This document shows, in pieces, positions 2,556-19,664 of a stretch of 64,000 nt of DNA; the first letter of the stretch is position 1; each line of letters starts with the position of its first letter. The notes beneath the pieces are model-generated. The model was not told the origin of the DNA. It saw nothing but the letters and a program-made list of their open reading frames with translations, and did no database searches. The position numbers were made by a program, and so were the translations under genes. This DNA is from a virus, in the IMG/VR virus record IMGVR_UViG_3300024324_000425, positions 1 to 64,000 of that record; one strand, 5' to 3'.

Positions 2556-3290
2556 ATGATTGGAATTATTGGTTATGGAATGGTGGGAAAGGCTGTCGAA
2601 CACGGCTTTCCTAATACAACTCACATTATATCGGACCCTGCGTATAACAAGGTAAGTATAGCTGACGTTTGCAATGCAAATCCCGATGCTATCTTTGTCG
2701 CAGTACCCACGCCTGATGATAACTCAAACTACGAAATACTTAAGACAGTATTAGATGTCATATTTGACTCTGAATATACAGGATTAGTAGTTGTTAAGTC
2801 AACCATATTACCCCACCACTTAATACCATACGATGTATTATATAACCCAGAGTTCTTATCGGAAAAAACAAACCTCGAAGACTTTATTAATCCTCCAATG
2901 TTAATTATTGGCGGAGATAAAGCACAAGAATTAGCCGACATATATACTAAGTACTCTATTGTAAAAACTGATAAAGTATTCCTTACCTCTATTGAAAATG
3001 CAAGTCATATTAAATATATGATGAATACGTTTTATGCAATGAAGGTAACCTTTATGAATGAGATGTATGATGTTGTAGGTAAGGACAATTGGAAAGAAGT
3101 AACAGGGATATTAAAGCAACACCCTTGGATGGGAACACATCACTTTGATGTTCCAGGCCATGATGGTAAGAGAGGCTTTGGTGGTGCATGTTTTCCAAAG
3201 GATACTAAAGCCTTAGCAAATGAATATGATATTAAATTATTAAAGACAACGCTTGAATTAAATGAAAACTTTATTAGTCGTCCTATCTGA
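2556..3290 (+). CDS. UDP-glucose/GDP-mannose 6-dehydrogenase family (short; lacks the C-terminal domain)
   Basis: GxGxxG (GYGMVG), AVPTP, KST, NPEFL and catalytic GFGGACFPKD. Confidence 0.85.
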   Translation: MIGIIGYGMVGKAVEHGFPNTTHIISDPAYNKVSIADVCNANPDAIFVAVPTPDDNSNYEILKTVLDVIFDSEYTGLVVVKSTILPHHLIPYDVLYNPEFLSEKTNLEDFINPPMLIIGGDKAQELADIYTKYSIVKTDKVFLTSIENASHIKYMMNTFYAMKVTFMNEMYDVVGKDNWKEVTGILKQHPWMGTHHFDVPGHDGKRGFGGACFPKDTKALANEYDIKLLKTTLELNENFISRPI

Positions 3291-4254: not shown

Positions 4255-4465
4255 TATTGAAAATATAAATCAATCGATGTATAAGGCAAGCACTCATTTG
4301 ATTGAAGCCGCAAAGTACCTATCAGACACAGGATTCAAAGATGAAAGCATTTCTTTAATGTCTTTAGCCGATAAGCTATTAGATGTTATTGTACCTGAAC
4401 CAGAGAAGATTACTGAAGAGAAGATGAATAATATTATGGATGAGATTATAAATTATGGCAATTAA
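4247..4465 (+). CDS. Small helical hypothetical protein
   Basis: 72-aa ORF overlapping both flanking rSAM genes. Confidence 0.6.
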   Translation: MNSIENINQSMYKASTHLIEAAKYLSDTGFKDESISLMSLADKLLDVIVPEPEKITEEKMNNIMDEIINYGN

Positions 4466-5570
4466 AAACCAGTTTACACTTGAGATAACAACTACAGCTT
4501 TATGTAACCTTGATTGCACGTATTGCTTCGAAGGATTAAAGACCGATAAACAAAAGTTAGATGAAAAGGTTGATGTACTAAAATTAAGGATTCAAGAGTT
4601 GCTTGATTCCGAATGGTTTAATGACAAATATGACGAGCTTAACTTATCATTTTGGGGTGGTGAACCTACATTAAACTTTAAACTTGTTACAGAGATTATC
4701 CAAGCATATCAAGATAATCCAAAGGTAAGTTACCATATATACACTAATGCTTATGATCGTAATAGATTAAATAAGATTATTGATAATGTCGATACATCTA
4801 ACTTGCATATTCAAGTGTCGTACGACGGCAAAGATATTAATGATGTATTCCGTGTACTTAAAACCGGTAAAACAACCTCTGATAAAGTTGTAGAGAATAT
4901 TAAATACTTAAGCGATCGAGGTATATCAACATCGATGAAAGCTACTATGCCATTAACAGCAATGGGATCTTTATATTCATCTTGGAAAGACCATGAAAGG
5001 TTATATAAAGAATTGCCTAATGTTCGTGTAGCATACGCCCCGACCATTGACTATGTATCGGATATTGATATTAATGGATTGCCAGATCTAATAGATAGCT
5101 TTAAGCATGGTATGATGAAGATTGCTAAAGAAGAGATTGAATTCCATAAAGAACACAGTCACTTCTTATGTACTTGGTTTACGGAGAACGATGCAAAGAC
5201 CCATTGCTCATCTGGTGTAAACATGCACGCTATAGACGTTGATGGTAATTCTTATGCATGTCACGGGTCATTATATTCTCCTAACAAAGATGAGATGAAA
5301 GGTGGACATATAGACGATGATAGTTTTATAAATAATATTATAAAAATGAGTGATTCTTTAAGAGAACCAATCCAAGAGGTATCAGATATATGTAATGGTT
5401 GCGTAGCAACTACATGTATGATATGTCCGGTAATTTCTCTAGATAACTCGAAGAAAGATAATTTTAACGATAAGTGGACTGATCGTTGGGTCAACAACAT
5501 GTGTGGATTCTTTAAAGCATTTGGTGAGATTGATAGATCTGTTCAGTATTATATAAACAAGAGGAATTAG
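4455..5570 (+). CDS. Radical SAM/SPASM maturase 2
   Basis: CNLDCTYC, FWGGEP, SYDG; C-terminal CSSG...DGNSYAC...CNGCVATTCMIC...C. Confidence 0.9.
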   Translation: MAIKNQFTLEITTTALCNLDCTYCFEGLKTDKQKLDEKVDVLKLRIQELLDSEWFNDKYDELNLSFWGGEPTLNFKLVTEIIQAYQDNPKVSYHIYTNAYDRNRLNKIIDNVDTSNLHIQVSYDGKDINDVFRVLKTGKTTSDKVVENIKYLSDRGISTSMKATMPLTAMGSLYSSWKDHERLYKELPNVRVAYAPTIDYVSDIDINGLPDLIDSFKHGMMKIAKEEIEFHKEHSHFLCTWFTENDAKTHCSSGVNMHAIDVDGNSYACHGSLYSPNKDEMKGGHIDDDSFINNIIKMSDSLREPIQEVSDICNGCVATTCMICPVISLDNSKKDNFNDKWTDRWVNNMCGFFKAFGEIDRSVQYYINKRN

Positions 5571-5571
5571 T

Positions 5572-6240
5572 ATGGCCCAACCAGCAAATCATTGTTCAAA
5601 TCACGGCACCGGCACAAGCACGTGTTCTAATCATAGGTCATCATGTTCTACTAATCGAACACTATCTTTAAGTAGCGATTATGGCGTGCCTGGTCATGTC
5701 ATTAGAGCATCGGATATAGAGAACGTTAGAACTAGAATTAGAGATGAAATGTCTCGATGGAACTTACACTCAAATTACAATTATGCATTAAGATCGCCAA
5801 GCTCAATATCAAGTGGCTCATCAATCATTGATAATCACGCAGAAGACTTAGTACAAATGGTTAATGATATGAACGGCGGTGGAACATTTGGAGATCTTAA
5901 TGGTGATCTTATTGAAGATAGTCATTGGGATATTATCAGAGATCGATATAATGTAATTAGACAAAACTGTATCTGTAACTCGGATTGTGCATGTAATAAT
6001 GTTTGTGCTTGCCATAATGATTGTGCATGTAACTATTCAGATGAAAGATTGAAAAGAGATATCGAATTTATTGAAGAAAGAAATGGTCTTAACATATACA
6101 ACTTTAAATACTTATGGGATGATACTATTAAAACCGGTGTTATGGCACAAGAGATTCTTAAAAGTAAATGGAAAGATGCTGTACATCAAGATAGAAAGGG
6201 TTATTATATGGTAGACTATTCAATGCTACCTAAATTTTAA
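5572..6240 (+). CDS. Cys-repeat protein fused to a peptidase S74 intramolecular chaperone (putative rSAM substrate / virion fibre)
   Basis: AGAGG RBS; (CxC[NH]xx)x4 immediately before SDERLK (Ser156/Lys161); GVMAQE and VDYS S74 motifs. Confidence 0.85.
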   Translation: MAQPANHCSNHGTGTSTCSNHRSSCSTNRTLSLSSDYGVPGHVIRASDIENVRTRIRDEMSRWNLHSNYNYALRSPSSISSGSSIIDNHAEDLVQMVNDMNGGGTFGDLNGDLIEDSHWDIIRDRYNVIRQNCICNSDCACNNVCACHNDCACNYSDERLKRDIEFIEERNGLNIYNFKYLWDDTIKTGVMAQEILKSKWKDAVHQDRKGYYMVDYSMLPKF

Positions 6241-6254
6241 AACGGAGTTATATT

Positions 6255-6860
6255 ATGATATATGAATTAGCATTAGTGATTGATAAAGGTACTTTTTGGG
6301 AAGTAACCAATGTCACAAAGAATACATTAGACAACTTAGCAAATCGAAATGAGACGATGCTCAAGTTATCTTATATAGCTTATAAACAGATCAAAGCTGG
6401 ATTAAGTGAAAATAAGATAGTACAAATCACTAAGGAAATGATGACCGATGAGGTTATGCCTGGTGAAGTACGGTATATTACTATCGGTGAAGAAGATGAT
6501 ATAGTGGATCATCGTAATGCAGCCTTGGCTAAAGTAAGAATGCTAGCAAATCCAACATTAGCTTCTATTGCCGGTTTAACTATGTACGGATTCATTGTAC
6601 TTAACAATGATTTGGTTAATGCAGGATATGCTATTACCAACGACAATAGAGAAGAGAAATACTTATCTATTTTAGAGACCGGTGATGAAGAGCTTATTAA
6701 TAAATTAGAAGATTACTTAAACTATAAAGATGAGATTGAACGTGTGGCTCAACTAGAACGCAAGTTCTCGAAGTACGTAACTGAAATAAATAATGCACCA
6801 CTTGAGGATATAGAAGGTATTCAAAATAAATTCTTAGAAGACTTCTATGCGACATATTGA
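6255..6860 (+). CDS. Hypothetical protein
   Basis: GGAG RBS; 201-aa ORF coupled to the downstream gene. Confidence 0.7.
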   Translation: MIYELALVIDKGTFWEVTNVTKNTLDNLANRNETMLKLSYIAYKQIKAGLSENKIVQITKEMMTDEVMPGEVRYITIGEEDDIVDHRNAALAKVRMLANPTLASIAGLTMYGFIVLNNDLVNAGYAITNDNREEKYLSILETGDEELINKLEDYLNYKDEIERVAQLERKFSKYVTEINNAPLEDIEGIQNKFLEDFYATY

Positions 6861-7606
6861 TTGGTGTTGTCTATAAATGGCAGGTCCACAATAAACTAAA
6901 CGGATCGGTATTTTATGCATTCGAACATGCAGCATATCTAAACTGCCCTTTATACCTTGTTAATATTAATGATAAAGACTTAGCTCTTCTTAAGAGTATC
7001 TTTGACGCTAAATATAATATTCCTCTTGATATTATAACTCCTATAAGTTTAATCGATTTATATAAAATTAAACTTGATAAAACACTAATACTCGATATTA
7101 GAACTTTCACTGAGGTAAAAGAATTTCTATCTAATGATATCCATGTATTCTCAAACGAAGCACATGATATGTTCAGATATAAGAATGATCGAACAGTAAC
7201 ATACTACGGCTCATACAAATATCAGAACTATGATATATTTAACTATCTCAAATTAAACTTTAATATATTCCAAGAGTCTACTGGTGGAGAAGGTACATTC
7301 GTGTCAGGTCTAAGAGTGCCCAATTCAATGCCGAATCTTAATAAGCCATTACTTAAAAAACATGGTAGCGGGCAAGGGGATATATTTAACAAGATTGATA
7401 CTATACATTATATACATACACTACTTGATACGAACAATAGGATTATACCTGAAGCATTTTTCCACAATAAAAAAATTGTGATTGATGATCAGAACCCAAC
7501 ATTAATAGATTCAATAACATTTAGATATAATGATATAATGGAAAATGGTTTAGGTAACTATACATTAAGCAAGGAGGATAAACTTGTCAAAGCTATTACA
7601 ACTTGA
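6857..7606 (+). CDS. Putative divergent GT-B glycosyltransferase-like protein
   Basis: TTG start; C-terminal NRIIPEAFFHNKKIVI resembles the GT4 EA...GKPV motif; similar to the next ORF. Confidence 0.4.
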   Translation: MIGVVYKWQVHNKLNGSVFYAFEHAAYLNCPLYLVNINDKDLALLKSIFDAKYNIPLDIITPISLIDLYKIKLDKTLILDIRTFTEVKEFLSNDIHVFSNEAHDMFRYKNDRTVTYYGSYKYQNYDIFNYLKLNFNIFQESTGGEGTFVSGLRVPNSMPNLNKPLLKKHGSGQGDIFNKIDTIHYIHTLLDTNNRIIPEAFFHNKKIVIDDQNPTLIDSITFRYNDIMENGLGNYTLSKEDKLVKAITT

Positions 7607-8426
7607 TCCTAAGATAGACTTATGGTTGTCATATACATGGAGTAACAATGATCATGGTATTTGTGGTCATGTCTATGAGGTGATTGATTATTATATGATA
7701 CTCAAAGATCACTTCAACGTTGGTATATTATTCGCTGAGAAGTTTGAATTAGACCTATCTAAGTATGATTTTGAATTAGATGAAAGTGTTATTACGTACT
7801 GTGACAAACCTTCAGTAGTTAAAGGGACTAACATATTATTCGTTGATGGTGGTGTAAACAGTAATATGAATAAAACTCTGTTGTTTGATAATATATTCTA
7901 TTTTGCCTGTGGTAATAAAGAAGTTAAAGATAATGATAAAGATAACGTATACATATTGCAAGATGATAGGGTGTATGATCCAGTTAAAAAGAATGGTATT
8001 AACTATAAGAAAAGAATTTTGCTTGATAGACTAAATCCGGTTGTCGTACATGATGATAGACCGATGGTATATACCACCACTAACTGTAGAGAAACAGACT
8101 TAACAGGATTACCAAGTAACACATTAGTTGTATCTGATAAAGAGTATGAAGAATTCGAATGTGTTAAACCACCGGTTAAAGATATATTCGAAAAGTTTCA
8201 TACATTCATATATACACCCGTTGCGCGCAAGTGGGACTGCTCGCCAAGATTTATCGTAGAGTGCGAACACCACGGCAAAGAAGTTGAGTACCATAACATC
8301 GATTATTGGGAAGAAGATAAAGGGTTATACTGGAGAAAGTGGGATATTGATAACGATTTTGATTCGCTGTATTTAAAAGAAGATGATGAAATAATATGTA
8401 TAATCAAGCAAGTACTTTCAAATTAA
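7584..8426 (+). CDS. Putative divergent GT-B glycosyltransferase-like protein (paralog of 6857)
   Basis: AAGGAGG RBS and TTG start; DCSPRFIVECEHHGKEV aligns with the upstream paralog motif. Confidence 0.4.
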   Translation: MSKLLQLDPKIDLWLSYTWSNNDHGICGHVYEVIDYYMILKDHFNVGILFAEKFELDLSKYDFELDESVITYCDKPSVVKGTNILFVDGGVNSNMNKTLLFDNIFYFACGNKEVKDNDKDNVYILQDDRVYDPVKKNGINYKKRILLDRLNPVVVHDDRPMVYTTTNCRETDLTGLPSNTLVVSDKEYEEFECVKPPVKDIFEKFHTFIYTPVARKWDCSPRFIVECEHHGKEVEYHNIDYWEEDKGLYWRKWDIDNDFDSLYLKEDDEIICIIKQVLSN

Positions 8427-9367
8427 TACCTAGAGATGCGCCTATTAATAATAGGGCTAAGTTGGACACTGGTACCCATTGCAACTATAAATGTGACTTC
8501 TGTTATTATAAGACTCAATTAGATGTAGTAACAAATTTAGATGTAATCAAAGAACGAATCGATTACTTAGTTGAATGTGGTATAACTGAAGTGGATCTTA
8601 GTGGTGGTGAATCATCTATTCATAAAGAATGGTTTGATATATTAGACTATTGTACTGATAAAGGATTGTACATATCATGTTTAAGTAATGGATTTAAGTT
8701 CGCTAAGAAGGAATTCATTCAGAAGAGCTATAACCATGGATTAAGAGAGATTCTATTCTCTGTACACGGGTATGACACCACATCTCATGACATGTTGGTG
8801 GGTCGCAAGCATGCATATAAGAATATCATTAAAGCTATTGGGAATGCACAAGAGCTTGGTATGGTTGTCCGAGTTAATTGTACAATAACAGAATCCAATT
8901 ATAAACACTTAGATGAGTTCGTTCTAATGATGAATGAGCTTAAACCATTACAAGTAAACTTTCTCCCTTTAAACTATTGGGACGATGCTAAACAACAAAG
9001 TGCATTGAACTATAAAGAGGTCTCTCCGTATATCCATAAGGCTATTGATACATTAAACATTGAAGAGATTAACGTACGGTATATTCCATTCTGTTTTATG
9101 AAGGGATATGAGAAGCATGTTGTCGGATACTTCCAACATATATATGATGTTAAAGACTGGAACATTGCAGTGTATGATCATAGTATTAATCCTGAGGAAT
9201 ATAAGAAAGATAGAGTTAAAGCGATGTTTGATGCGGCCAAAAGAAACAGAATAAATACATATATTAAAAAGAAAGAGTGCTTGCAATGTAAGTACTACTT
9301 CGTATGTGATGGTATAGAGCATGATCAAGAAGTATTTCCAGAAGATGGCGAGAAGGTGTTATTATGA
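8396..9367 (+). CDS. Radical SAM enzyme 3
   Basis: CNYKCDFC, LSGGE, SVHG; C-terminal CLQCKYYFVCDG. Confidence 0.9.
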   Translation: MYNQASTFKLIPRDAPINNRAKLDTGTHCNYKCDFCYYKTQLDVVTNLDVIKERIDYLVECGITEVDLSGGESSIHKEWFDILDYCTDKGLYISCLSNGFKFAKKEFIQKSYNHGLREILFSVHGYDTTSHDMLVGRKHAYKNIIKAIGNAQELGMVVRVNCTITESNYKHLDEFVLMMNELKPLQVNFLPLNYWDDAKQQSALNYKEVSPYIHKAIDTLNIEEINVRYIPFCFMKGYEKHVVGYFQHIYDVKDWNIAVYDHSINPEEYKKDRVKAMFDAAKRNRINTYIKKKECLQCKYYFVCDGIEHDQEVFPEDGEKVLL

Positions 9368-10371
9368 ATAACATAAAACAGGTATTGAATCCTACAGACA
9401 TTGAATCTATAGAGCTAGGTTTAATTAATAAATGTGTGTTAGACTGTAGACTATGTTTAAGACAAGAGGCTATAACAGACAATTTGGAAAAAGATGTAGC
9501 AATTGACTTAGGTACTTTATCGAAATTTATGGATCAACTGCCTAATCTCAAACAGGTAGATTTAGTAGGTTCTATATCAGAACCAACCTTGCATAAACAA
9601 TTTTATGGTATCATAAAGTATATCAAGGGACGTAACTTAAAGATTAGACTATCAACTAACGGCAATACATTTTCGTTAAATTGGTGGGCTAATCTAGGTA
9701 AGTTAATGGATGAACGTGATATAGTAAGGTTTGCTGTTGATGGATCTACACAAGAAATACATGCTAAATACAGAGTCAATGGTAAACTGTCTAAGGTGTT
9801 AGCTTGTCACACCGCGTTTAAAAGTACATCACGGAGTATTACCGTGTTACAAAATATACTATTCGCATATAATATAGATGATCAAGATAATGTGCGGGCG
9901 TTATTTATGAAAGAAAACTTTGATATATGTGAATTTACACATACAGGTGGATTTGATTTCACAGGAACACCCGCCTTGATAAAGGATAATATACTCCCGG
10001 TTAAAGACTTATTATCAAGTTATAATAAACTCACCCGAGATCATACAGTTAATATGAAATTAAACTGCGCGGCCTTTATGGGGAAGTATGTATATCTAAA
10101 TCACTTGGGTTGTGTTCTACCATGTGATGATATGGAAGAGACTACATTCATCTCGCCCAGTAATAACATAACTATATATAATAATACTATAGATGAATGC
10201 TTCGCTCATGTAAATTCCATAATATCTAAAAGGTTTTTCTGCAACACATGTTCTGAGTGTTGTGGCCAGCTCCATCATGATATACGTAAAGAATACCCAA
10301 TTATACAATATAATAGAAATGGCGATTCAGAATCTTTGTATAAATTTAGAGAAGTGATGAATATAATATGA
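9364..10371 (+). CDS. Radical SAM enzyme 4 (twitch-type)
   Basis: CVLDCRLC, SEPTL, STNG, VDG; C-terminal C...GCVLPC...CNTCSECC. Confidence 0.85.
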   Translation: MNNIKQVLNPTDIESIELGLINKCVLDCRLCLRQEAITDNLEKDVAIDLGTLSKFMDQLPNLKQVDLVGSISEPTLHKQFYGIIKYIKGRNLKIRLSTNGNTFSLNWWANLGKLMDERDIVRFAVDGSTQEIHAKYRVNGKLSKVLACHTAFKSTSRSITVLQNILFAYNIDDQDNVRALFMKENFDICEFTHTGGFDFTGTPALIKDNILPVKDLLSSYNKLTRDHTVNMKLNCAAFMGKYVYLNHLGCVLPCDDMEETTFISPSNNITIYNNTIDECFAHVNSIISKRFFCNTCSECCGQLHHDIRKEYPIIQYNRNGDSESLYKFREVMNII

Positions 10372-11354
10372 ATATAAATGAAATACACACATTAGAGATC
10401 GGACTAATTAATAAATGTACTTTATCGTGCCCGTTGTGTTTGCGCAATGATAAAGTGTTAATGGGTAGGTTAAAAAAGAATGAAAGCTTGGATTGGCAAG
10501 TTTTAAGAAACTTCTTAGATACTCTAGTGAACTTAGAGAGGGTAGTACTTATGGGGGCAGTATCAGAACCAACGTTATATCCTGAGTTCTTTGAGTTGAT
10601 AAAATACCTAAAATGTCGTAACTTAAAAGTCAGATTATGTACGTCTGGGTCTACACATGACGAAGCTTGGTGGGCTAAGCTTGGACCGATGCTGGATGAA
10701 AATGATATCACAAGATTCCCGGTAGATGGGTCTACACAAGAGCTTCATTCTAAATATCGGAGAGGGTCTGTATTAAATGATGTATTAAAGTACCACGCTG
10801 CATTTAAATCAGCTAGTGCTTGTACTACTATTTTACAGCATATTATATTTCAATATAACGAACATGATAAAGATAATATAAGGGACATATACTTTAAAGA
10901 AAACTTTGATCTTTTAGAGATGAGTCCATGCTATGAACCCAATCTTAATATGAAAAACGTAGAAAAAGATGGGATCATTCCAATTAAAACCCTATTCAAT
11001 TATCAGCGATTGAAAAACCAAGCTGTTAATAATAAACCAAAAATATGGAAGGGATGTCCGGAAGCTAGAGATAATGCAGCATACTTAGGTCATAGGGGAT
11101 TACTAGTCCCATGCAATGAGCAGGAAGATGCACATTTCAAGATGGATACATTTGTAAATATATATGACAATAGTATTGATGAGGTTATTGAATATCTAAA
11201 CGTTATATTAAATGGTATAAACACGGATGATACATGTTTGAGGTCATGTACTGAAATGGGACAAAGAGAATGTTTCATTTTTCCAATAACCCAATATAAT
11301 AAAGTCGGTGATAAGTATGAGTTAATAGACTTTAGAGAGTGTATGAAACGATGA
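10368..11354 (+). CDS. Radical SAM enzyme 5 (tandem paralog of enzyme 4)
   Basis: CTLSCPLC; shares E-G-L-I-N-K-C, SEPTL, VDGSTQE and KENFD blocks with 9364. Confidence 0.85.
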   Translation: MNINEIHTLEIGLINKCTLSCPLCLRNDKVLMGRLKKNESLDWQVLRNFLDTLVNLERVVLMGAVSEPTLYPEFFELIKYLKCRNLKVRLCTSGSTHDEAWWAKLGPMLDENDITRFPVDGSTQELHSKYRRGSVLNDVLKYHAAFKSASACTTILQHIIFQYNEHDKDNIRDIYFKENFDLLEMSPCYEPNLNMKNVEKDGIIPIKTLFNYQRLKNQAVNNKPKIWKGCPEARDNAAYLGHRGLLVPCNEQEDAHFKMDTFVNIYDNSIDEVIEYLNVILNGINTDDTCLRSCTEMGQRECFIFPITQYNKVGDKYELIDFRECMKR

Positions 11355-12436
11355 TACATACACACACAGAATGGGGCAAACTTAAAGAAGTAATTGTAGG
11401 TAGAGAATTGGAGTTACCTATGAGAATGATGGACATTACATTTAAAATATTTTATAACAGCAACTTACAACATACACAATTCACTGCATACAACGATTAT
11501 AGAATCTCTCCAAAACTAATACAAGAAAGAATAGATGATTTAGATGGTTTAGCCAAAGCGTTAGAGGATGAGGGGATCGTAGTTAAACGTCCTAATGTTG
11601 TAGATAAGTCAGTATTAATCAATACCCCTAACTTTAAATCTGTGTTGAGTTCTGCTTCAAATGTGAGGGATTTAACATTAACGTATAAGAATAAAATTAT
11701 TGAGACCCCACCTTTAGTTAGAGGTAGGTACTTCGAAAATAACAACTTGATTAATATATTTAAGGAACACTTCATGAGTGGTTCTGAATGGGTTCGAGCT
11801 CCTAATGTACTATTATCGGATGAAACATTCGATAGCGATGAATGGGATAATGATAGAGACTTGATTAACGTATCATCTAAATGGGATCTTGGTATTGATG
11901 CCGCTCAATATTTAAAGTTAGGTACGGATGTATTTTGCAACATATCTACATATAATCATGCGCTTGGCTCAAAATGGGTTAACCAGATGTTGGGAGAAGG
12001 CGTTACGGTTCATATGATAGATTCGATGATAGATAATCATTTAGATGGAACGATACTACCATTACGGCCAGGAGTATTTTTGGTTAATGAAAGTACATTA
12101 TCTAAACCTATTAAGGAATACCTCCCGGATAAATTTAAAGATTGGAAGTTCATTAGTGTAAACGAAGGTGTGAAGCATCAGAAAAATTACGACACATATA
12201 ATACACCATTTGTTCAATTGAGCAGTTATCGTGGTATGGATATGAATGTATTAAGTATTGACGAAAATACAGTGCTGGTTAATTCTGATGCCACGAGTAC
12301 AATTAGTTTATTAAAAGAAGAAAGTTTTAGAGTGATCCCTATACAATTAAGACATTGTGAATTGTTTGGTGGTGGCATTCATTGTAGCACATTAGATACA
12401 ATACGAGAGGATGAGTTTAAAGATTATACATTATGA
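11351..12436 (+). CDS. Amidinotransferase (GAT/StrB1/CyrA family)
   Basis: HTEWGKLKEVIVGR, RD, DAA, HLDGT, LRPG and catalytic GGGIHCSTLD. Confidence 0.85.
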   Translation: MIHTHTEWGKLKEVIVGRELELPMRMMDITFKIFYNSNLQHTQFTAYNDYRISPKLIQERIDDLDGLAKALEDEGIVVKRPNVVDKSVLINTPNFKSVLSSASNVRDLTLTYKNKIIETPPLVRGRYFENNNLINIFKEHFMSGSEWVRAPNVLLSDETFDSDEWDNDRDLINVSSKWDLGIDAAQYLKLGTDVFCNISTYNHALGSKWVNQMLGEGVTVHMIDSMIDNHLDGTILPLRPGVFLVNESTLSKPIKEYLPDKFKDWKFISVNEGVKHQKNYDTYNTPFVQLSSYRGMDMNVLSIDENTVLVNSDATSTISLLKEESFRVIPIQLRHCELFGGGIHCSTLDTIREDEFKDYTL

Positions 12437-12873
12437 TATATTTAATATCGCGTATCGATGAGCAAGCACATTCCCATAATATTGCTATAGCTAACATAGT
12501 ATCGGAGGTGTATAATCATAAAGTGTTCGTGCCGCATTTGCATAACCCATATAATATACCCCACAATAAGATGGAATATAAGACGTTTAAAACTGACCTC
12601 ACTAAGATGAAAGAATCATCTATGGGCGTTATAGCATTGCCTGTAGGCAACGATTGTTCCGGAGAAATTGGATGGTTCGCTGGAAATAATAAAGCGGTTA
12701 TTGCTATTATCAAGAGCACCGAGTATATGTCTAGTGCTGACCAGATAGAATCACTTTCATCTATGTGGATGATAAAGGGATTTATTGATGAGGTTGTGGT
12801 ATTTAACGAACATGACCAATTGGTATTACTCAATGATCCTATACTTAAGGATAAGGTAACATTATGGTTATAG
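12433..12873 (+). CDS. Nucleoside 2-deoxyribosyltransferase / MilB-like nucleotide N-glycosidase
   Basis: IYL...FVPH...D...GEIGW...K motif pattern of the NDT/Rcl fold. Confidence 0.6.
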   Translation: MIYLISRIDEQAHSHNIAIANIVSEVYNHKVFVPHLHNPYNIPHNKMEYKTFKTDLTKMKESSMGVIALPVGNDCSGEIGWFAGNNKAVIAIIKSTEYMSSADQIESLSSMWMIKGFIDEVVVFNEHDQLVLLNDPILKDKVTLWL

Positions 12874-13571
12874 AGGTCAATGAGTATTTACTAAACCGCT
12901 TAAGCGAAGTAAACGTATTAGATATAGAAATAGAGGGGGATTTGGTTGAACCCACTTACTTTTTTTATATATCATCAACTACGTATAATAAGCTTGTTGA
13001 TGAATTCTTTCCAAGTGCTGATTTATTACAAGGCTTGGTTAAAACCTATAATGGGTGCTTATTTAAAATTGAACTAAAAGACAATAAAGTTGAAATCTTA
13101 ATTGGGTTTGAATTAGGAGATCATACTTTAACTATGGTATTTGATGATGAGTATAAATTAGTTGATATTAAATTTTATACATTGGTTGAAGAAGTGGGTA
13201 TATACAAGGTATGTTATAAGATAAAGCTTTCAAGTATTAGTTCGTTATACTACAATTATGAAGTCAATGGTATATGGACGAGTTATGCACCACCTATTAG
13301 TATGTACACCGAGGTATTTTCGGCAACAAAGTATACTATAGCCGATAAATTAAGACACCTGCGTAAAGAGTATACTAAACATAAGGACGTACCAAGTGTA
13401 CACTTTGATGATGTTATGGTTATATCAAACATTAAAGATTACCAAGATGTGTTAACATATGCTGGATCAAATTTAAACATTAAGCCAACTATAAATAAAT
13501 TACTACAGCTGTTAATTATAGAGGAGTATAATGAGTTTATCAAACAACATAGCATTAATAACAACTATTGA
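12864..13571 (+). CDS. Hypothetical protein
   Basis: 235-aa ORF overlapping both neighbours. Confidence 0.6.
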   Translation: MVIEVNEYLLNRLSEVNVLDIEIEGDLVEPTYFFYISSTTYNKLVDEFFPSADLLQGLVKTYNGCLFKIELKDNKVEILIGFELGDHTLTMVFDDEYKLVDIKFYTLVEEVGIYKVCYKIKLSSISSLYYNYEVNGIWTSYAPPISMYTEVFSATKYTIADKLRHLRKEYTKHKDVPSVHFDDVMVISNIKDYQDVLTYAGSNLNIKPTINKLLQLLIIEEYNEFIKQHSINNNY

Positions 13572-14412
13572 AGGTGACCTTAAGGATATCAATACCTTAA
13601 AGCAGGGATATATTAGATGTTACGAACAAGAGGCAGTTCAGTGTTTTACTGAGTGGCGAAAGAATGCTGGCTGGTTGAAAGATGTTCCTATATATTGTAT
13701 TGCGTTAACCAAGAACACGATATCACAAGAAACAAAAGATATCTTTAAAGAACTTAATGTTAATTACATTGAAAAATTCTATCCTGAAACTGAACTTTAT
13801 CAAAACGGATATTGGAATATACCACTATCTGGTAAATATTTTGAAGAAGAACTTAAAGAAGACATCTTAATTAAAATTGATTTAGACATGTATCTTATTA
13901 AAGAACTGTCTAAAGAGATGTTTAATATTGAGAGAGGCACAACAACAGTTGGTAGGTATGACCCATTGTCGGCAAAACATAATACCAATAAGTTAACGTT
14001 TCCAGAAAGATATGGTCAACCATGGGATACTGGTTTAGTGATTACACACAGGGCCACTGGTTTTTTTGGAAAGTTTTATAACAAATTAAAACAAATTACA
14101 TCTGAATTTGAAGATGGCACCTTTGAGAGTTTATACGGATTACATATTAAAGAACATGACAACGATCATGGTGTTGATTATGGTGCTATCGAAGAGTTTG
14201 CGGTGTCTATCATGTACACGGATGAAGATGCCAAATTAATTCCACAATTTAAATACAACTTAGGCGAGTTTTACGCACCGATAGACATATACACAGATGA
14301 AGAAGTTCAAGAGATATACTTCTTCCATGAACATATACCACTTCAGGAGATTGGCTATGATAAATTCAAGACACGTATTGAATACTTCCATCGCATTAAT
14401 CACGGTAATTGA
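13531..14412 (+). CDS. GT-A (GT8-like) glycosyltransferase
   Basis: GAGGAG RBS; KIDLDM DxD motif, DTGLV, FFHEH; TATAAATA at 13490. Confidence 0.55.
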   Translation: MSLSNNIALITTIEGDLKDINTLKQGYIRCYEQEAVQCFTEWRKNAGWLKDVPIYCIALTKNTISQETKDIFKELNVNYIEKFYPETELYQNGYWNIPLSGKYFEEELKEDILIKIDLDMYLIKELSKEMFNIERGTTTVGRYDPLSAKHNTNKLTFPERYGQPWDTGLVITHRATGFFGKFYNKLKQITSEFEDGTFESLYGLHIKEHDNDHGVDYGAIEEFAVSIMYTDEDAKLIPQFKYNLGEFYAPIDIYTDEEVQEIYFFHEHIPLQEIGYDKFKTRIEYFHRINHGN

Positions 14413-15190
14413 ATCTGATCTAATTAATATAGATTCTAATAATACACATAACACTAGGCTATTTGAAAGAGAAGCTATATTGTCGTTTAGTCATTGGCGT
14501 AACAATGCTGGAATATATAAAGATATTCCCATATATGCAGTGTGTATTACAAAAAATACTATATCAAAAGATACTAAAGATAAGTTTAAAGAATTAAATG
14601 TAACTTATATTGAAAGTTATCAAGCGGTCACAGAGTCGTTTGATTGTGGGTTTTATAATAAACCACTAGGATGTAAGGTGCTTGAAGAGACCTTAACAGA
14701 AGATATATTAATTCATATAGACTTGGACATGTATTTAATGAGAGAGCCTACCATACCTTTCAAAAATGCATGCATGGTATATGATACACACCAACTACAT
14801 AAAGAACGTATACATAAAAACGGTGAGGTGATAGACACATATAACACATGTTATATGGTTACTAAACGCAAAGATAAGATATTTTCTAAGTGGTGGGATA
14901 AACTAAAACAACTTGATGAGGATTACATATTAGATCGTAGTGAGTTTGATAAACTATATGATAACCTAGAGTATAGAAAATTAGAAGAGTTGTCGTTTGA
15001 TTTATTATCATTAGACATAGAGATTTACAATATACCAAACTCTTTGTTTGGGGAGACATATACCCCATTAGCTAGTATGAATAAATTAGAATTGAATAAT
15101 ATCACCTTTCACCACTATCACATATATACATCATTAGTTGAGTACAACTGGTTTGCTGGATATAGGGAATACACAAAATGTTTTCTTTAA
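14357..15190 (+). CDS. GT-A glycosyltransferase, tandem paralog of 13531
   Basis: AGGAGA before ATG 14357; shares IALIT.IE.D, WR.NAG..KD.PIY, TKNTIS and IDLDMYL with 13531. Confidence 0.55.
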   Translation: MINSRHVLNTSIALITVIESDLINIDSNNTHNTRLFEREAILSFSHWRNNAGIYKDIPIYAVCITKNTISKDTKDKFKELNVTYIESYQAVTESFDCGFYNKPLGCKVLEETLTEDILIHIDLDMYLMREPTIPFKNACMVYDTHQLHKERIHKNGEVIDTYNTCYMVTKRKDKIFSKWWDKLKQLDEDYILDRSEFDKLYDNLEYRKLEELSFDLLSLDIEIYNIPNSLFGETYTPLASMNKLELNNITFHHYHIYTSLVEYNWFAGYREYTKCFL

Positions 15191-15942
15191 AAATCCCTAA
15201 AATGATGTGTGTGCCAATAACAGACAAGTGTCATTTGCGATGTGGGTTCTGTTATAATAGTAATGATTATTTCAAAACAGCTAAGCACATGGATATTGAT
15301 GAGTTTAAGGATATTGTTGATTGGCTCATATCAGAAGGAATATCTTATATTGATATAACCCCTGCGGTGGGAGAAGCTTTGTTAATCCCAAACCTTCATG
15401 AATTTCTGGACTATTTAGATAACTCGAGTATTGATAAGTATTTATTAATTACATCACTGGCTGTTAAAGATATATCAGTATTAAAGGATCGTCATAAAAT
15501 AGATATAGAGGTTAGTTTATATGGGGAAAACGCAGAACAATATATAAAAACCACTGGGAGGGATGTGTTTGATTTGGTCTTACCCAACATTAAAGAATTG
15601 ACTAAAGATGGTATTACTATATTAAAACGCTTTAAAGAGCCTATAACATCAACAGATCTTCGACTAATAACGAAATTCGATAATGTGAAGTTAGTTGATT
15701 ATAGTGATGATCGCGGATTAGAGTATGCATCAAAAACTGGGGAAGTACGAGAGTGTGTGTTCATGAAAGAACCTTTGGTTACTAAGCGGGGAATTAGTTT
15801 GTGTTGTAAGGATCATAAGATTGAGGACTTGGTTATTGGTCAGGTTGGTGAAAGTCTAAAAGATATATATAATAACATATCAATAGATGATGTCAAGTGT
15901 TCTATTGAATGTGATTGGTTTATAGATGCATCCACAGATTGA
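15178..15942 (+). CDS. Radical SAM enzyme 6 (short, twitch-like)
   Basis: CHLRCGFC, GEA, SLYG; C-terminal C...LCC...C..C. Confidence 0.8.
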   Translation: MFSLKIPKMMCVPITDKCHLRCGFCYNSNDYFKTAKHMDIDEFKDIVDWLISEGISYIDITPAVGEALLIPNLHEFLDYLDNSSIDKYLLITSLAVKDISVLKDRHKIDIEVSLYGENAEQYIKTTGRDVFDLVLPNIKELTKDGITILKRFKEPITSTDLRLITKFDNVKLVDYSDDRGLEYASKTGEVRECVFMKEPLVTKRGISLCCKDHKIEDLVIGQVGESLKDIYNNISIDDVKCSIECDWFIDASTD

Positions 15943-16384
15943 TCCAACTGAACATGATCTTATAATAAGATTCTTTGGAATTGATCCAACCTCCAATATA
16001 CTTTCTGGAAATCTTAATCTGGGAACAAGCGATTTTAGAAATATAATAGACTTCTATAGGTTTGAATATAAAGATAGAGAAGCTGCGTTTTGGGATGTTG
16101 TATATCCAAAATCGTTGTTATATCCTAATATAGAAATACCTATTACAATGACACGTGTGGCATTAGATTGGGTTGATTATGTTACAAAGGTTGATGTATC
16201 ATATACTATTGATGATAATAAACTTATAATGAATACCTCCCCACAAGGTGATCGGTATAATAAAATGTTACAACTGATATGTTGTATGATATTTGTATCA
16301 GATTTTAATAATATGAGTGATGATAAAAAATATATAGACACGAGTGCGGCTTGGCTGATTATAATGAAGATAGCAAATGAATAA
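15926..16384 (+). CDS. Hypothetical protein
   Basis: 152-aa ORF coupled to both neighbours. Confidence 0.6.
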   Translation: MHPQIDPTEHDLIIRFFGIDPTSNILSGNLNLGTSDFRNIIDFYRFEYKDREAAFWDVVYPKSLLYPNIEIPITMTRVALDWVDYVTKVDVSYTIDDNKLIMNTSPQGDRYNKMLQLICCMIFVSDFNNMSDDKKYIDTSAAWLIIMKIANE

Positions 16385-16982
16385 CCATGAATTTATAAAG
16401 ATGTTTGAGGATGAGTTGAGTACCTACACCGGTGCACCTTATGTAGTCCTTACAGACTCATGTACTAATGCGGTGTTCTTAATGTTAAAGTATCTAGATA
16501 TACAAACCACTATTAGTATTCCAAATCATACGTACATCTCTATCCCCCAACAGATTATACATGCTGGAGGTTGCGTCGAGTGGAATACTGAAGAATGGAT
16601 AGGTTCTTATAATTTAAAGAATACTCCTATCTGGGATAGTGCTGTCGGGTTCCATAAAGATATGTACATTAAAGATCAATTCATGTGTTTATCATTTCAA
16701 CAAAAGAAAGCATTACCCATTGGAAAAGGAGGAGCTATTCTATTATCCAAAAAAGAAGATTATGAAATTCTTAAACGAATGGCATGGGATGGAAGAGACG
16801 CTTCTGTATCTGTTGAAAGGGATATAAATAATATTATACTAGGATATCATATGAACATGACCCCTAATGATGCGGTTAATGGATTATTACTACTTAATCA
16901 ATTTACCGCGGTAAAGGATAATCAGGGATGTTGGTTAGACTACCCTAACTTAGACGTAACAAAAGTAAATGGAGAAACATAA
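16377..16982 (+). CDS. DegT/DnrJ/EryC1/StrS PLP aminotransferase (short form)
   Basis: FEDEL, SCTNA, DSA, SFQQKKALPIGKGG (PLP Lys), GYHMNM. Confidence 0.85.
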   Translation: MNNHEFIKMFEDELSTYTGAPYVVLTDSCTNAVFLMLKYLDIQTTISIPNHTYISIPQQIIHAGGCVEWNTEEWIGSYNLKNTPIWDSAVGFHKDMYIKDQFMCLSFQQKKALPIGKGGAILLSKKEDYEILKRMAWDGRDASVSVERDINNIILGYHMNMTPNDAVNGLLLLNQFTAVKDNQGCWLDYPNLDVTKVNGET

Positions 16983-17648
16983 ATGGATAAAAATCCAAAT
17001 CGAACGTGTTGTGATGATGGCAAGTGCTATCGCCATGATGTAATTAATAAGCTGGAGAGTGAATTTAATATTATTGAAGCACTTGATGAACTAGAATGGG
17101 GATATACTCACACGTTTGTATTCATCGAAGATAAGCTATACTATTACAAACCTGAACTTATATCACAAATCGCGGCGGATGCTGCTATATGGGATGAGTC
17201 TTATACAGGAGACTTTAAAGCTTCGGTTGATGAGATATCATCATTGTTAAATCAAGAAGTAATATTGACTGATGTTTATAGTAAATTAGATGAGTATATT
17301 AGAAGTGGTATTAACGGGATGCCAACATTCATTGAAGAGACTGAGAGTTTCTTAGTATTTGCGGATCCGAAGGCTGAGGTGATGCCTGTTGATGAGTGGA
17401 AAAATAATCTATTGAATATTAAAAATAGTTTCAGTGATGATATTAATCCATTGTTAGAAGTGTTTGGTGATAATGAGCTTTATATAAAGGGTAACCAAGT
17501 ATATTGCTATGATATACTAGCCTTTGAAAATAACACTAATGGTAAGTTAGGAGTATTTAGTGAGGCTGATGATAAAATAGTGTTTAGTGCATTTGGCGAG
17601 TTAGATCCAACACAAGCTAAAGTCGTGGATCTGCTTAAAGAGTTATAA
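16983..17648 (+). CDS. Hypothetical acidic protein with N-terminal CCxxxxC
   Basis: GGAGA RBS; 221-aa ORF. Confidence 0.6.
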   Translation: MDKNPNRTCCDDGKCYRHDVINKLESEFNIIEALDELEWGYTHTFVFIEDKLYYYKPELISQIAADAAIWDESYTGDFKASVDEISSLLNQEVILTDVYSKLDEYIRSGINGMPTFIEETESFLVFADPKAEVMPVDEWKNNLLNIKNSFSDDINPLLEVFGDNELYIKGNQVYCYDILAFENNTNGKLGVFSEADDKIVFSAFGELDPTQAKVVDLLKEL

Positions 17649-18533
17649 ATGAATATATTATTATTAGGCGGTGCCGGTTTTATTGGTACCCATTTAGCCA
17701 AACGGTTAAAAGGTGAAGGACATAACATAACAATCATTGATTCGTTGAGCACATCAGTATCTCCGGATTATGGTGTTAACTTTATTAAAGGCGATGTGGC
17801 TACAATGGATTTAGATATCCAATTAATGGAAGCTGACTTAGTATATTACTTGGCAGGATCTGTTGGAGTAGAATACATTGATAAGAATCCATCAAGCACT
17901 CTATTCAATAACATTGACTTAATGACTAAGTTAATCCCTGCCTTTGAAAGAGCACAAACAAAAGTAATATTCTCATCCACTTCTGAAGTATATGGTGAAG
18001 GACCTTTCAACGAAGACAACGCATTAAGTATTGGTTCCCCTAATAAATTAAGATGGGGTTATGCTTGTGCTAAGTTAATGACTGAGTTCATGATAAAGGC
18101 TTCTACATTCCCATCGGTTATTGTAAGATTCTTTAATGTAGTGGGACCTGGTCAATCCGCTGATTATGGTATGGTCCTACCTAGAATGGTAGCGGCGGCA
18201 AAGACCGGACAAAACTTAATTATATATGGCGATGGCAAACAAGTTAGATCATTCTGTCACATCAAAGATGCTATTGATGCTCTTATATTATTACAAGATG
18301 CTGAGGGTATATACAATGTTGGTAATGATACCCCCTCAACAATGAATGAGTTAGCAACGGCTGTATTAAGAGAAATAGCCACAACATCTAATATGAAGTA
18401 TCGACCTTATGAGAAAGATTTCTCTAAAGAACATGGTGATATATACTATAGGGTACCTGATATTACTAAGCTTAAAGAGCTCGGGTATGAACCTAAATAT
18501 GATTTGAAAGATATTATAAGAGATATGTTATGA
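17649..18533 (+). CDS. NAD-dependent nucleotide-sugar epimerase/dehydratase (SDR)
   Basis: GGAGFIG, SSTSEVYG, YACAK, RFFNVVGP, GDGKQVRSF. Confidence 0.9.
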   Translation: MNILLLGGAGFIGTHLAKRLKGEGHNITIIDSLSTSVSPDYGVNFIKGDVATMDLDIQLMEADLVYYLAGSVGVEYIDKNPSSTLFNNIDLMTKLIPAFERAQTKVIFSSTSEVYGEGPFNEDNALSIGSPNKLRWGYACAKLMTEFMIKASTFPSVIVRFFNVVGPGQSADYGMVLPRMVAAAKTGQNLIIYGDGKQVRSFCHIKDAIDALILLQDAEGIYNVGNDTPSTMNELATAVLREIATTSNMKYRPYEKDFSKEHGDIYYRVPDITKLKELGYEPKYDLKDIIRDML

Positions 18534-19177
18534 AGATAGTTTTTATATTTGCTCATCCAGATGATGAAGCGTATGGACCTGCTGGTACTATACACAAGTT
18601 AGCTAACGCTGGCCATAGTGTATCGGTGGTTGTTATGTGTAAAGGTAATAGGCCTGGTGCTGAAGAAGTATGTGATGATAGAATGGAAGCCTTTAAAAAG
18701 AGTTGTAGTTCATTAGGGGCTACAGGAACTATGTTCTTAAACAACGATTGTAAGTTAAAGTATGGAGAAACTCTTAAACAAATAGAAGGAGTTATTAACG
18801 ATCTTCAACCAGAAGTAGTGTATACTCATAATATATCTGACATTCATAAAGATCATAGGTTAGTTGCAGAGTGTGTAATAGTAGCTACTAGGCCGAAGCC
18901 TGAGTCATCTATTAAAGAATTATATATGTGCGAGATCCCAGCATCTACTGATTGGGCATTTGGTCAATTAGGTGAGGCATTCCAACCTAATGTTTATAAA
19001 GATGTATCAATGGAAATATATAAGAAGCAACAGGTGATGGGATATTATGCAACAGAAGTATATGAATATCCAGATGCTAGATCAATTGAAAGTATGGAAA
19101 CTTTAGCGATGTATAGAGGTAAGACTGTTGGCATGCATAGAGCTGAAGCGTTTAAGCAGGTATATCGACTCGACTAG
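18530..19177 (+). CDS. PIG-L/LmbE family N-deacetylase
   Basis: AHPDDE, DIHKDH, AEAF. Confidence 0.9.
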   Translation: MKIVFIFAHPDDEAYGPAGTIHKLANAGHSVSVVVMCKGNRPGAEEVCDDRMEAFKKSCSSLGATGTMFLNNDCKLKYGETLKQIEGVINDLQPEVVYTHNISDIHKDHRLVAECVIVATRPKPESSIKELYMCEIPASTDWAFGQLGEAFQPNVYKDVSMEIYKKQQVMGYYATEVYEYPDARSIESMETLAMYRGKTVGMHRAEAFKQVYRLD

Positions 19178-19664
19178 ATCCATAGAAGTCAGTGAAACCA
19201 TAAGGCTTTAAAAGACCTGCATATAAACCATCTAGTTCTTCGTTGTAAGGAAAACAAAATGATGTTGGTATATAATCTAATTCTTTCTTAAACCACGCTA
19301 GCATAAGTTCTGTATCTTCTTTGATATGTTTAACCTTATCAACTAACTTAGGGATTTTAGATACATCTTTATGATAATGGGAATGGCCACCTATCTCTAT
19401 ACCCATATTGATTATCTCTTTGATTTGATCAATAGTCATATAGTTTTCAGTATTACCTTTAAACGCCTTTACATGAGCACTACGACAATCAATAAACTCT
19501 TCTGATTGTTTACCCCTACATATTATATTAGACGAGATAAAGAATATCTTATCATTAGGTAAGTCTTTACCGTATAGATACTGAGAGTATAGACCATCAT
19601 CAAAGGTACACAATCCCTTTGGTATATTAGTGTCTTCTTTCATTTCGTGTATCATTAATACCAT
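19152..19664 (-). CDS. Polysaccharide deacetylase (NodB/CE4-like)
   Basis: TFDDG, EIGGHSHYH, FCFPY; the only credible minus-strand gene in the window. Confidence 0.8.
   Translation of the reverse strand: MVLMIHEMKEDTNIPKGLCTFDDGLYSQYLYGKDLPNDKIFFISSNIICRGKQSEEFIDCRSAHVKAFKGNTENYMTIDQIKEIINMGIEIGGHSHYHKDVSKIPKLVDKVKHIKEDTELMLAWFKKELDYIPTSFCFPYNEELDGLYAGLLKPYGFTDFYGSSRVDIPA

Follow-up and report, generated by a model that had tools for sequence, protein, structure and literature searches.

What would a marine phage make with an amidinotransferase, six radical S-adenosylmethionine (radical SAM) enzymes, a pair of glycosyltransferases and a set of sugar-editing enzymes encoded side by side among its structural genes? 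The question is raised by IMG/VR virus record IMGVR_UViG_3300024324_000425, a 79.6-kb virus contig whose first 64 kb constitute the stretch analysed here (the window). An initial annotation had singled out a block at 11351..19177 as resembling aminoglycoside and peptidyl-nucleoside antibiotic clusters; every open reading frame (ORF) that it named is present in its place on the plus strand, and the block makes up the 3' two thirds of a larger island (2556-19664). This island is a conserved, operon-like unit in the host-recognition region of the phage, and its product is probably a group of the amino- or guanidino-sugar type. We tentatively favor, at somewhat less than even confidence, a reading in which the sugar is built in the cytoplasm and edited in place on a macromolecule, perhaps a Cys-array fibre protein encoded in the same island.

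An enzyme island among the structural genes of a T4-like phage

PHROG scans place the window in a T4-like myovirus, with matches to neck, sheath, tube, portal, prohead protease, scaffold and capsid proteins as well as to a gp55-like sigma factor, clamp, clamp loader and DNA polymerase. The capsid protein shares ~50% identity with its counterparts in Pelagibacter phage HTVC008M and Methylophilales phage Melnitz, and a megablast search of 50,697 phage records returned no DNA-level match to the region; the source of the window is an uncultured marine T4-like phage. The island consists of co-directional plus-strand genes from 2556 to 19177, many with overlapping starts and stops, followed by a convergent minus-strand gene (19152-19664), and is bounded by a tail-fibre-like gene (3-1622; phrog_2295, Gly_rich_2) and by PhoH and neck genes. 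It extends beyond the annotated block to take in five upstream radical SAM genes (beginning at 3262, 4455, 8396, 9364 and 10368), three conserved proteins without assigned function, a 72-aa ORF and the Cys-array protein, together with the CE4 deacetylase encoded by the convergent gene. The same genome position is occupied in pelagimyophages by the 'host recognition cluster' (PMC7029224).

Scans of 25 proteins encoded at 2556-23189, covering the island and its flank, against Pfam, PHROG and NCBIfam left six island proteins without any family. No 19-residue hydropathy window exceeds 1.55 in any of the 23 island proteins, all of which look soluble by this prediction, and the scans of the island proteins turned up no polyprenyl-phosphate transferase, flippase or transporter/exporter. 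Given that the proteins appear soluble and that no lipid-carrier transferase, flippase or exporter accompanies them, the chemistry of the island is therefore likely to be cytoplasmic.

Conservation across phages and predatory bacteria

The initial annotation had made its proposal depend on these genes being co-conserved, and they do recur: in 19 IMG/VR loci, in Campylobacter phages CP220 and F379, and in the predatory bacteria Halobacteriovorax and Peredibacter. Recurrence in synteny in so many records argues that the gene set is more than a product of chance. The loci were gathered with a 36-sequence amidinotransferase alignment, which gave the 19 IMG/VR loci and the F379 locus plus 20 from cellular genomes, while a single-sequence query gave 42 pattern matches and no confirmed locus. 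When gene presence was scored by tblastn in the 20 phage and viral loci, the glycosyltransferase GTa was found in 19, the radical SAM enzymes rS4 and rS5 in 18 each, rS3 and a half-size DegT-fold protein (mini-DegT) in 14 each, a short-chain dehydrogenase/reductase (SDR) in 13, and the PIG-L and CE4 deacetylases in 12 each. The conserved proteins h7584 and h16983 were detected in ten and nine loci, rS6 in seven and a half-size dehydrogenase (mini-dehydrogenase) in four; a protein resembling nucleoside 2-deoxyribosyltransferases (NDT-like) and the protein h12864 were detected in none. These counts are lower bounds, because contig ends or the 10-kb flank truncate many of the loci, and they represent fewer independent lineages than loci, because the amidinotransferases of L011-L014 are identical and L001 and L005 are near-identical phages. 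Gene orders are similar among the related viral loci.

From rS1 to the CE4 gene, the gene content and gene order of the window recur in two Halobacteriovorax genomes and in a complete Peredibacter chromosome. Cytochrome bc/c genes border the Peredibacter island on one side and ftsK-rpsB-tsf-pyrH-frr-uppS on the other, and the island holds a full-length 382-aa DegT protein (6e-124). A search for sheath proteins as a sign of prophage origin was negative in all three predator genomes by a method that cannot show absence; on this point the housekeeping genes on either side of the Peredibacter island are more telling. The remaining 15 cellular amidinotransferase homologues (24-32% identity) have different neighbors. 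As a separate observation, a gene just downstream of the Peredibacter island (L023:17331-18401) encodes a protein that combines an N-terminal methylation motif of the type IV pilin kind with a Peptidase_S74 domain at its C terminus.

An arginine-type amidinotransferase shared by phages and predators

The amidinotransferase gene (11351..12436, +) lies in an ORF that opens at GTG 11339, and its likely start is ATG 11351, given the 361 aa of the nearest database cluster; 731 homologues were counted at E<=1e-10. Searches of solved structures bore out the annotated amidinotransferase, an L-arginine-type enzyme of the pentein fold, with matches to HsvA (2.9e-48), StrB1 (7.4e-44), AGAT (7e-36) and SxtG (2e-34) that run from residue 4 or 6 to residue 363 of 365. 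Residues C349, H234, D236, D187 and D111 do not vary in any of the 36 aligned homologues and align with the GGGFHCATLD, THVDS, FDAA and PRD segments of StrB1; we take these Cys, His and Asp positions to be the catalytic residues. The protein has no Pfam match at E<=0.01 and some homologues carry a precomputed PF02274 assignment, which suggests that the PF02274 model is weak for this clade.

A maximum-likelihood tree, rooted at the midpoint and comprising uncharacterised cellular homologues and no characterised enzyme, joined the phage and predator amidinotransferases in one clade of 21 rows (support 96/81), apart from 14 other cellular homologues. Within it the window enzyme groups with those of the Campylobacter phages and one viral contig (95/90), and the predator sequences (98/99) sit among the viral rows.

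Glycosyltransferases, SDR and two deacetylase families

Two paralogous proteins, GTa (13531..14412, +; phrog_23758) and GTb (14297..15190, +), were assigned to the GT8/GT24-like GT-A glycosyltransferases by PHROG and alignment, and for GTa also by a structure model. The true start of GTb is probably an internal ATG, because its first ~25 residues align with nothing. The AlphaFold model is of good quality (predicted local distance difference test, pLDDT, 88.8; predicted template-modeling score, pTM, 0.90), and Foldseek matched it to the UGGT catalytic domain (5e-9), glycogenin (2.3e-8), LARGE1 (4.6e-8) and a GT8 protein (1.2e-7), with query-normalized template-modeling scores (TMq) of 0.5-0.56 against the first three. 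Residues I116, D117 and D119 of the I-D-x-D motif are invariant in 18 of 18 sequences, although the proteins belong to no Pfam or NCBIfam family and an 18-sequence profile found no match in the PDB. By the modeled fold, the pair appears to resemble most closely those retaining enzymes that act on proteins or on protein-bound glycans.

Downstream, an extended SDR of the nucleotide-sugar epimerase, decarboxylase or dehydratase type (17649..18533, +; Pfam Epimerase 3.3e-45) has as its best solved relatives UDP-sugar 4-epimerases, human UDP-glucuronate decarboxylase, TunA (3.9e-27) and MoeE5, with ArnA lower in the list. It is followed by a PIG-L/LmbE-family N-deacetylase (18530..19177, +; Pfam 7e-21) that carries AHPDDE and HKDH, and by the convergent CE4 polysaccharide-deacetylase-family protein (19152..19664, -; Pfam 1.9e-5, phrog_26430 3e-25), which carries TFDDG and HSHYH. 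We take these motifs to be the metal-binding and catalytic motifs of PIG-L and CE4, two families that typically act on glycoconjugates. The initial annotation had named the glycosyltransferase pair, the SDR and the PIG-L deacetylase, and all of these assignments hold, that of the pair through the modeled GT-A fold and the invariant Asp columns.

Half-size sugar enzymes

The DegT aminotransferase and the UDP-glucuronate-forming dehydrogenase of the initial annotation proved to be partial forms of those enzymes. At 16377..16982 (+) the island encodes mini-DegT, a 201-aa protein that corresponds to the pyridoxal phosphate (PLP) large domain only, as judged by Pfam (4.7e-15, in two pieces only), a structure model (pLDDT 88.6) and Foldseek. 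K111 and D87, presumably the Lys to which PLP binds and the Asp bound to its pyridine nitrogen, do not vary among the 12 sequences compared, and the segment SFQQKK aligns with SFHPRK of 8vr3. Against sugar aminotransferases, with ArnB and BtrR among the structural matches, TMq was 0.61-0.70 and the target-normalized score (TMt) ~0.38, the model covering ~38% of the targets. The fold and the conserved Lys and Asp thus support the DegT claim, whereas the two-domain architecture of 360-400 aa is not found, the protein having neither a C-terminal domain nor one internal stretch. In phages a short protein of this kind is usual, all 14 homologues having 196-274 aa, and mini-DegT is 41% identical to SSCSM2R_305 of the cultured cyanophage S-SCSM2R (195 aa, 5e-47). 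The neighboring gene at 16983-17648 was considered as the missing C-terminal half and rejected, as its product matches no family, forms a separate family in 9 of the 20 loci, and the short form is itself conserved.

The first island gene (2556..3290, +) encodes mini-dehydrogenase, a 244-aa protein like UDP-glucose/GDP-mannose dehydrogenases (PF00984 5e-13, PF03721 6e-10, the latter a partial match). It has a Rossmann start and the Cys motif GGACFPKD, and it ends ~30 residues after that motif. The NAD and central domains are therefore related to those of the proposed dehydrogenase, but the UDP-binding C-terminal domain is missing, and the NCBIfam nucleotide-sugar dehydrogenase model gives 107 bits against a cut-off of 190. 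The same short form (248-264 aa) occurs in viral loci L007, L010, L015 and L019. We assume that the parts missing from both half-size proteins are the nucleotide-holding parts of the canonical enzymes.

Radical SAM enzymes and a Cys-array fibre-type protein

Six radical SAM proteins are encoded on the plus strand of the island. Two radical SAM/SPASM proteins, rS1 (3262..4254; Pfam Radical_SAM 3.7e-11) and rS2 (4455..5570; Pfam 8.5e-12), are nearest to peptide maturases: the best NCBIfam match of rS1 is the PapB ranthipeptide maturase family (5.7e-24), at a score far below the cut-off, and rS2 matches the same family (2.9e-26), again below it. The third, rS3 (8396..9367; Pfam 9.4e-18, phrog_27238 8e-92), has BlsE as its best solved chain (1.3e-11, over the core region only), followed by SkfB, PqqE and viperin-like enzymes. 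rS4 (9364..10371; phrog_21308 5e-84) was missed by Pfam but has the CxxxCxxC motif and is a paralogue of rS5 (10368..11354; Pfam 2.6e-10, phrog_21308 1e-95), for which a PDB search gave no solved relative at E<=0.01. As the PHROG profile has 735 positions, longer fused forms of rS5 were sought, and none was found at E<=1e-10. The short rS6 (15178..15942; Pfam 4.5e-9), with the cluster motif CHLRCGFC, had been annotated as a twitch-type enzyme; it is a radical SAM protein, but its five Cys in the last ~70 residues are merely compatible with a twitch domain, and no twitch or SPASM model appears among the 25 NCBIfam matches listed of 34.

The Cys-array protein (5572..6240, +; Pfam Peptidase_S74 1.4e-5) combines an N-terminal Cys/His motif with a C-terminal (CxCxxx)x4 array and a Peptidase_S74 domain that starts S-D-E-R-L-K. 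Peptidase_S74 is a self-cleaving chaperone domain, and homologues in Halobacteriovorax and L019 that end directly after the array fit removal of the domain at that point. The array is kept in the islands of L007, L019, L021 and L024, with variants in those of L023 and L010. In 13 of the 18 records examined, the protein lies inside the island or immediately upstream of it; a search of virus records placed it just upstream in four of five and gave a weak match in one of five further records. It is a frequent but not obligatory partner of the island. The PapB-like rS1 and rS2 flank an acidic, helical 72-aa ORF (4247..4465, +; no Pfam match), which has positional look-alikes in L019 and in Peredibacter (L023), and they precede the Cys-array protein. 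Cross-linking of a Cys-rich protein by a SPASM enzyme has been demonstrated in vitro for CrpC and CrpA (PMC13692751).

Genes outside the core and proteins without assigned function

The NDT-like protein (12433..12873, +) had been annotated as an NDT/MilB-like hydrolase. It scores 19.1 bits against a Pfam cut-off of 28.8, although membership of the nucleoside 2-deoxyribosyltransferase superfamily is supported by its relatives, 27 of 32 scanned matching PF05014 or PF15891 at E<=0.001 and nine reaching a cut-off. Its three close homologues share an invariant G-E-I-G motif (3/3), to which we ascribe a catalytic role by assumption. Judged by its distribution, this gene, the one member of the island of a nucleoside type, appears to be lineage-specific and outside the conserved core. 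Among its relatives, P0145, P0155 and P0136 are fused to NUDIX, dATP/dGTP diphosphohydrolase N-terminal and UbiA-type domains, and by their sequences these fusions would point to nucleotide metabolism rather than glycan synthesis.

Three conserved proteins precede rS3: one at 6255..6860 (+; phrog_25260), one at 6857..7606 (+), and h7584 (7584..8426, +; phrog_24441, 1.8e-27), with which the second aligns distantly (~20% identity). A 16-sequence profile of the family of the latter two found no PDB match, and Pfam scans of its 16 members gave chance-level matches only; the ESM atlas offers a weak lead for h7584 to GT-B type glycosyltransferases (0.90). The protein h12864 (12864..13571, +) has no Pfam, PHROG or NCBIfam match, and the idea that it corresponds to a ~215-aa protein encoded after the amidinotransferase elsewhere was rejected, the two being only 19% identical. 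That protein, of ~215-243 aa and without a family, stands next to or one gene after the amidinotransferase (L006:11037-11681, L011:11049-11696, L002:5727-6371, L021:11937-12617, L023:11928-12659) and has no counterpart in the window. The gene at 15926..16384 (+) encodes h15926, shared only with Campylobacter phages (2 of the 20 loci), and h16983 (16983..17648, +) is a very acidic protein (net charge -26) with no Pfam or NCBIfam match and no usable match in the ESM atlas.

Elsewhere in the window, adjacent genes at 55094-58141 encode a thymidylate-synthase-like protein (divergent), a T4-type DNA alpha-glucosyltransferase (PF11440, 3e-75) and a C5 cytosine methylase-like protein; this trio suggests glucosylated hydroxymethyl-pyrimidine DNA in a pelagimyophage-like phage.

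A proposed model: cytoplasmic sugar editing on a macromolecular acceptor

The enzyme families of the island, their catalytic motifs, their co-conservation and the lack of membrane proteins are observations, and a model must accommodate all four. Judging from the enzyme families, an amino- or guanidino-sugar would be the most economical chemistry. The GT8-like GT-A pair would attach sugars to a macromolecular acceptor, PIG-L and CE4 would strip N-acetyl groups, and the SDR and mini-DegT may add an amino group by oxidation and transamination. The amidinotransferase would then transfer the amidino group of L-arginine onto an exposed amine to give a guanidino sugar, with the radical SAM enzymes perhaps performing further C-H chemistry of a kind that cannot be named from sequence. 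Editing after rather than before transfer is suggested because both nucleotide-sugar-type enzymes are truncated and two glycoconjugate deacetylase families are present. The likeliest acceptor would be a phage particle or fibre protein, one candidate being the Cys-array/S74 protein of the same block. Every substrate in this scheme, the order of its steps, the guanidino-sugar product and the acceptor are thus what we infer. The evidence leans toward cytoplasmic production of a decoration on a macromolecule and away from a diffusible antibiotic; that the decoration sits on a fibre or virion protein of the phage, or on a bacterial one in the predators, is possible but rather doubtful. A more far-reaching version would hold that phages and predators share a dedicated system that decorates a self-cleaving, cysteine-stapled fibre protein with a glycan edited in place by stripped-down enzymes, deacetylases and radical SAM enzymes and finished with an arginine-derived guanidino group, a cationic 'guanidino-glycan' for prey or host recognition. 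This we regard as a long shot.

Several points weigh against this model. Its substrate, product and acceptor are proposals drawn from sequence and models, the hydropathy screen behind the predicted solubility is crude, and lipid carriers and export could be supplied by host enzymes. The half-size DegT and dehydrogenase proteins may not be catalytic at all, and the sugar-editing enzymes are accessory to the core, since the Campylobacter phages carry the core of radical SAM enzymes, amidinotransferase and GT-A proteins but no SDR, PIG-L, CE4 or DegT. HsvA, the best solved match of the amidinotransferase, is a polyamine-directed enzyme, so that an amine other than a sugar could be the acceptor. 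Of 10 records searched for the Cys-array protein, 5 yielded none, and these include the nearly complete CP220 (99%) and G009 (97%) as well as G013 and two records whose contigs end close upstream; as the core is present without it in CP220 and G009, it is not an obligatory acceptor. The T4-type late promoter octamer TATAAATA occurs at 2543-2550, directly 5' of the first island gene, the coding strand carries 17 of the 18 copies present in the window, and several copies stand just 5' of structural genes (2543, 19730, 20781, 27572, 29906, 36165 and 62860). Eighteen copies is nevertheless a chance-level count (13.2 expected; 14 of 100 shuffles reach 18), and the octamer before the island is therefore a hint only.

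Alternative products and destinations

The same genes could instead make a small, free and diffusible compound, guanidino-glycoside or nucleoside-like in nature, along the lines of aminoglycosides, blasticidin or tunicamycin, acting on the host or on competitors. A StrB1-type amidinotransferase, a DegT fold with a match to BtrR, a PIG-L protein, an SDR with a match to TunA and an rS3 closest to BlsE would all be at home in such a pathway, as would a set of enzymes that look soluble and an NDT-superfamily protein, and the related genes of S-SCSM2R have been labeled 'antibiotic synthesis genes' (PMC12801897). We nonetheless consider this outcome unlikely, given that the Pfam, PHROG and NCBIfam scans found no scaffold-forming enzyme, exporter or self-resistance gene, that the NDT-like gene is absent from all 20 related loci, that the GT-A proteins resemble protein- or glycan-directed transferases and that the island lies among structural genes. 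Remodeling of a host envelope glycan (lipopolysaccharide, capsule or some other glycan of the surface), for instance as a barrier to superinfection, has a different set of arguments in its favor. The dehydrogenase, SDR, DegT and CE4 proteins recall the Ugd-ArnA-ArnB-ArnD route to 4-amino-arabinose as that route is generally known, ArnB and ArnA turn up as structural and sequence matches, a gene for a PAP2-type phosphatase lies a few genes downstream of the module in F379, and modification of the host O-chain is the role proposed for pelagimyophage host-recognition clusters with GT8, dehydrogenase and radical SAM genes (PMC7029224). The scans and hydropathy, however, reveal no membrane protein, polyprenyl-phosphate glycosyltransferase, flippase or ligase in the island, and the same block is chromosomal in free-living predators, for which superinfection exclusion has no obvious use; we judge envelope remodeling to be distinctly unlikely.

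Two further possibilities would put the chemistry on a protein or peptide, or on DNA. If the island as a whole matured a protein or peptide in the manner of RiPPs (peptides made by the ribosome and altered after translation), SPASM enzymes would cross-link the Cys-array protein, the amidinotransferase would make homoarginine or arginine from Lys or Orn, and sugars would be secondary. The PapB-type thioether maturases that rS1 and rS2 score best against, the position of these two genes around a conserved small ORF and ahead of the (CxCxxx)x4 protein, and the CrpC/CrpA precedent (PMC13692751) speak for it. Against this, all NCBIfam scores are far below their cut-offs and the core of radical SAM enzymes, amidinotransferase and GT-A proteins occurs without the Cys-array protein in CP220 and G009. 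No peptide-acting amidinotransferase of this family is known to us, though no search aimed at one was made, and overall we find such maturation improbable. Least probable of all, and very unlikely to our mind, is hypermodification of phage DNA, in which glucosyl-hydroxymethyl-pyrimidine would bear an amino- or guanidino-glycan. The window does encode the thymidylate-synthase-like, DNA alpha-glucosyltransferase and C5-methylase-like proteins, NDT-like relatives are fused to nucleotide pyrophosphatase domains, and phage glycosyltransferases are known to carry out DNA glycan hypermodification (Pyle et al. 2024, cited in PMC12619734). The DNA-modification genes are nevertheless 36 kb from the island, which has structural genes around it; predatory bacteria carry this block in the chromosome, and Campylobacter phages, in which a 7-deazaguanine is the known DNA modification (PMC10516641), have it too.

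Implications

Should the reading of a sugar edited on a phage or predator protein prove correct, a widespread set of marine phages, Campylobacter phages and Bdellovibrio-type predators would decorate part of their host- or prey-recognition apparatus with a cationic sugar, made by enzymes without characterised relatives. This would bear on how the host range of abundant ocean viruses is set and on the many radical SAM genes of phages, a question that has stood since 2010 for the Campylobacter phages. Enzyme discovery would gain cases of sugar amidination beyond antibiotic biosynthesis, 'mini' enzymes for sugar editing and novel radical SAM chemistry; a free metabolite, were that the product instead, would be a rare phage-made natural product. 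Cultured carriers are available in cyanophage S-SCSM2R, phages CP220 and F379, Halobacteriovorax and Peredibacter. Our literature search found no functional study of amidinotransferase and radical SAM modules in phages or Bdellovibrio.

Comparison with known systems

The resemblance to antibiotic clusters from which the initial annotation started is one of enzyme families. By their well-known compositions, the blasticidin S/mildiomycin and butirosin/streptomycin clusters share with the window radical SAM, DegT-fold, PIG-L, amidinotransferase, NDT-superfamily and glucuronate-type dehydrogenase proteins. They differ in that the DegT and dehydrogenase proteins of the window are half-size, its glycosyltransferases are GT8-like and its NDT-like gene is not conserved (0 of 20 loci). 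The scaffold-forming and ligating enzymes of such clusters were also not found: none of the 25 proteins of 2556-23189 matched a 2-deoxy-scyllo-inosose or inositol-phosphate synthase, and the same scans of the island proteins detected no cytosylglucuronate synthase, ATP-grasp ligase or arginine (2,3-)aminomutase. At the level of single enzymes, StrB1 (inosamine-phosphate amidinotransferase, PDB 1bwd) and HsvA (PDB 5wpi) align with the window amidinotransferase over the full length (154 and 168 bits, respectively; identity ~30-35% by eye), whereas the streptidine or polyamine pathway context of these enzymes is absent around it.

For a decoration made in the cytoplasm, the precedent is virion glycosylation in mycobacteriophages, in which phage-encoded glycosyltransferases modify capsid and tail proteins (Freeman et al. 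2023, cited in PMC12619734). The phages, hosts and enzymes differ from those of the window. To our knowledge, neither an amidinotransferase nor radical SAM enzymes have been reported for that process.

Closer in setting is the host recognition cluster of pelagimyophages and cyanomyophages, which occupies the same position as the window island, after tail-fibre-type and before neck genes, and for which radical SAM cassettes, GT8 transferases and UDP-glucose dehydrogenase were described (Zaragoza-Solas et al. 2020, PMC7029224). That paper, in the portion available, treats the region generally and does not name the amidinotransferase, the conserved gene set or the copies in predatory bacteria. 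Among cultured phages, cyanophage S-SCSM2R carries at ORF302-310 (L050:2995-9748) a half-size DegT, a radical SAM enzyme, an amidinotransferase (23% identical) and several glycosyltransferases, but 2-oxoglutarate (2OG) oxygenases take the place of most of the radical SAM enzymes of the window, and the glycosyltransferase beside the amidinotransferase is unrelated to GTa by BLASTP. The role of these genes was stated to be unclear, and another glycine amidinotransferase (ORF266) was found in the virion proteome of S-SCSM2R (PMC12801897).

A module with closely related genes is found in Campylobacter phages CP220, CPt10 and F379, whose amidinotransferase is 57% identical to that of the window and which share, in a similar order, rS4/rS5-type genes, rS6, GT-A paralogues, h15926 and an h7584-like gene. 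Host and phage lineage differ, and the Campylobacter version comes without the SDR, PIG-L, CE4, mini-DegT, mini-dehydrogenase and Cys-array proteins. In describing CP220 and CPt10, Timms et al. (2010) regarded the module of radical SAM and 'glycine amidinotransferase' genes as interchangeable and probably non-essential and assigned it no function (PMC2853527).

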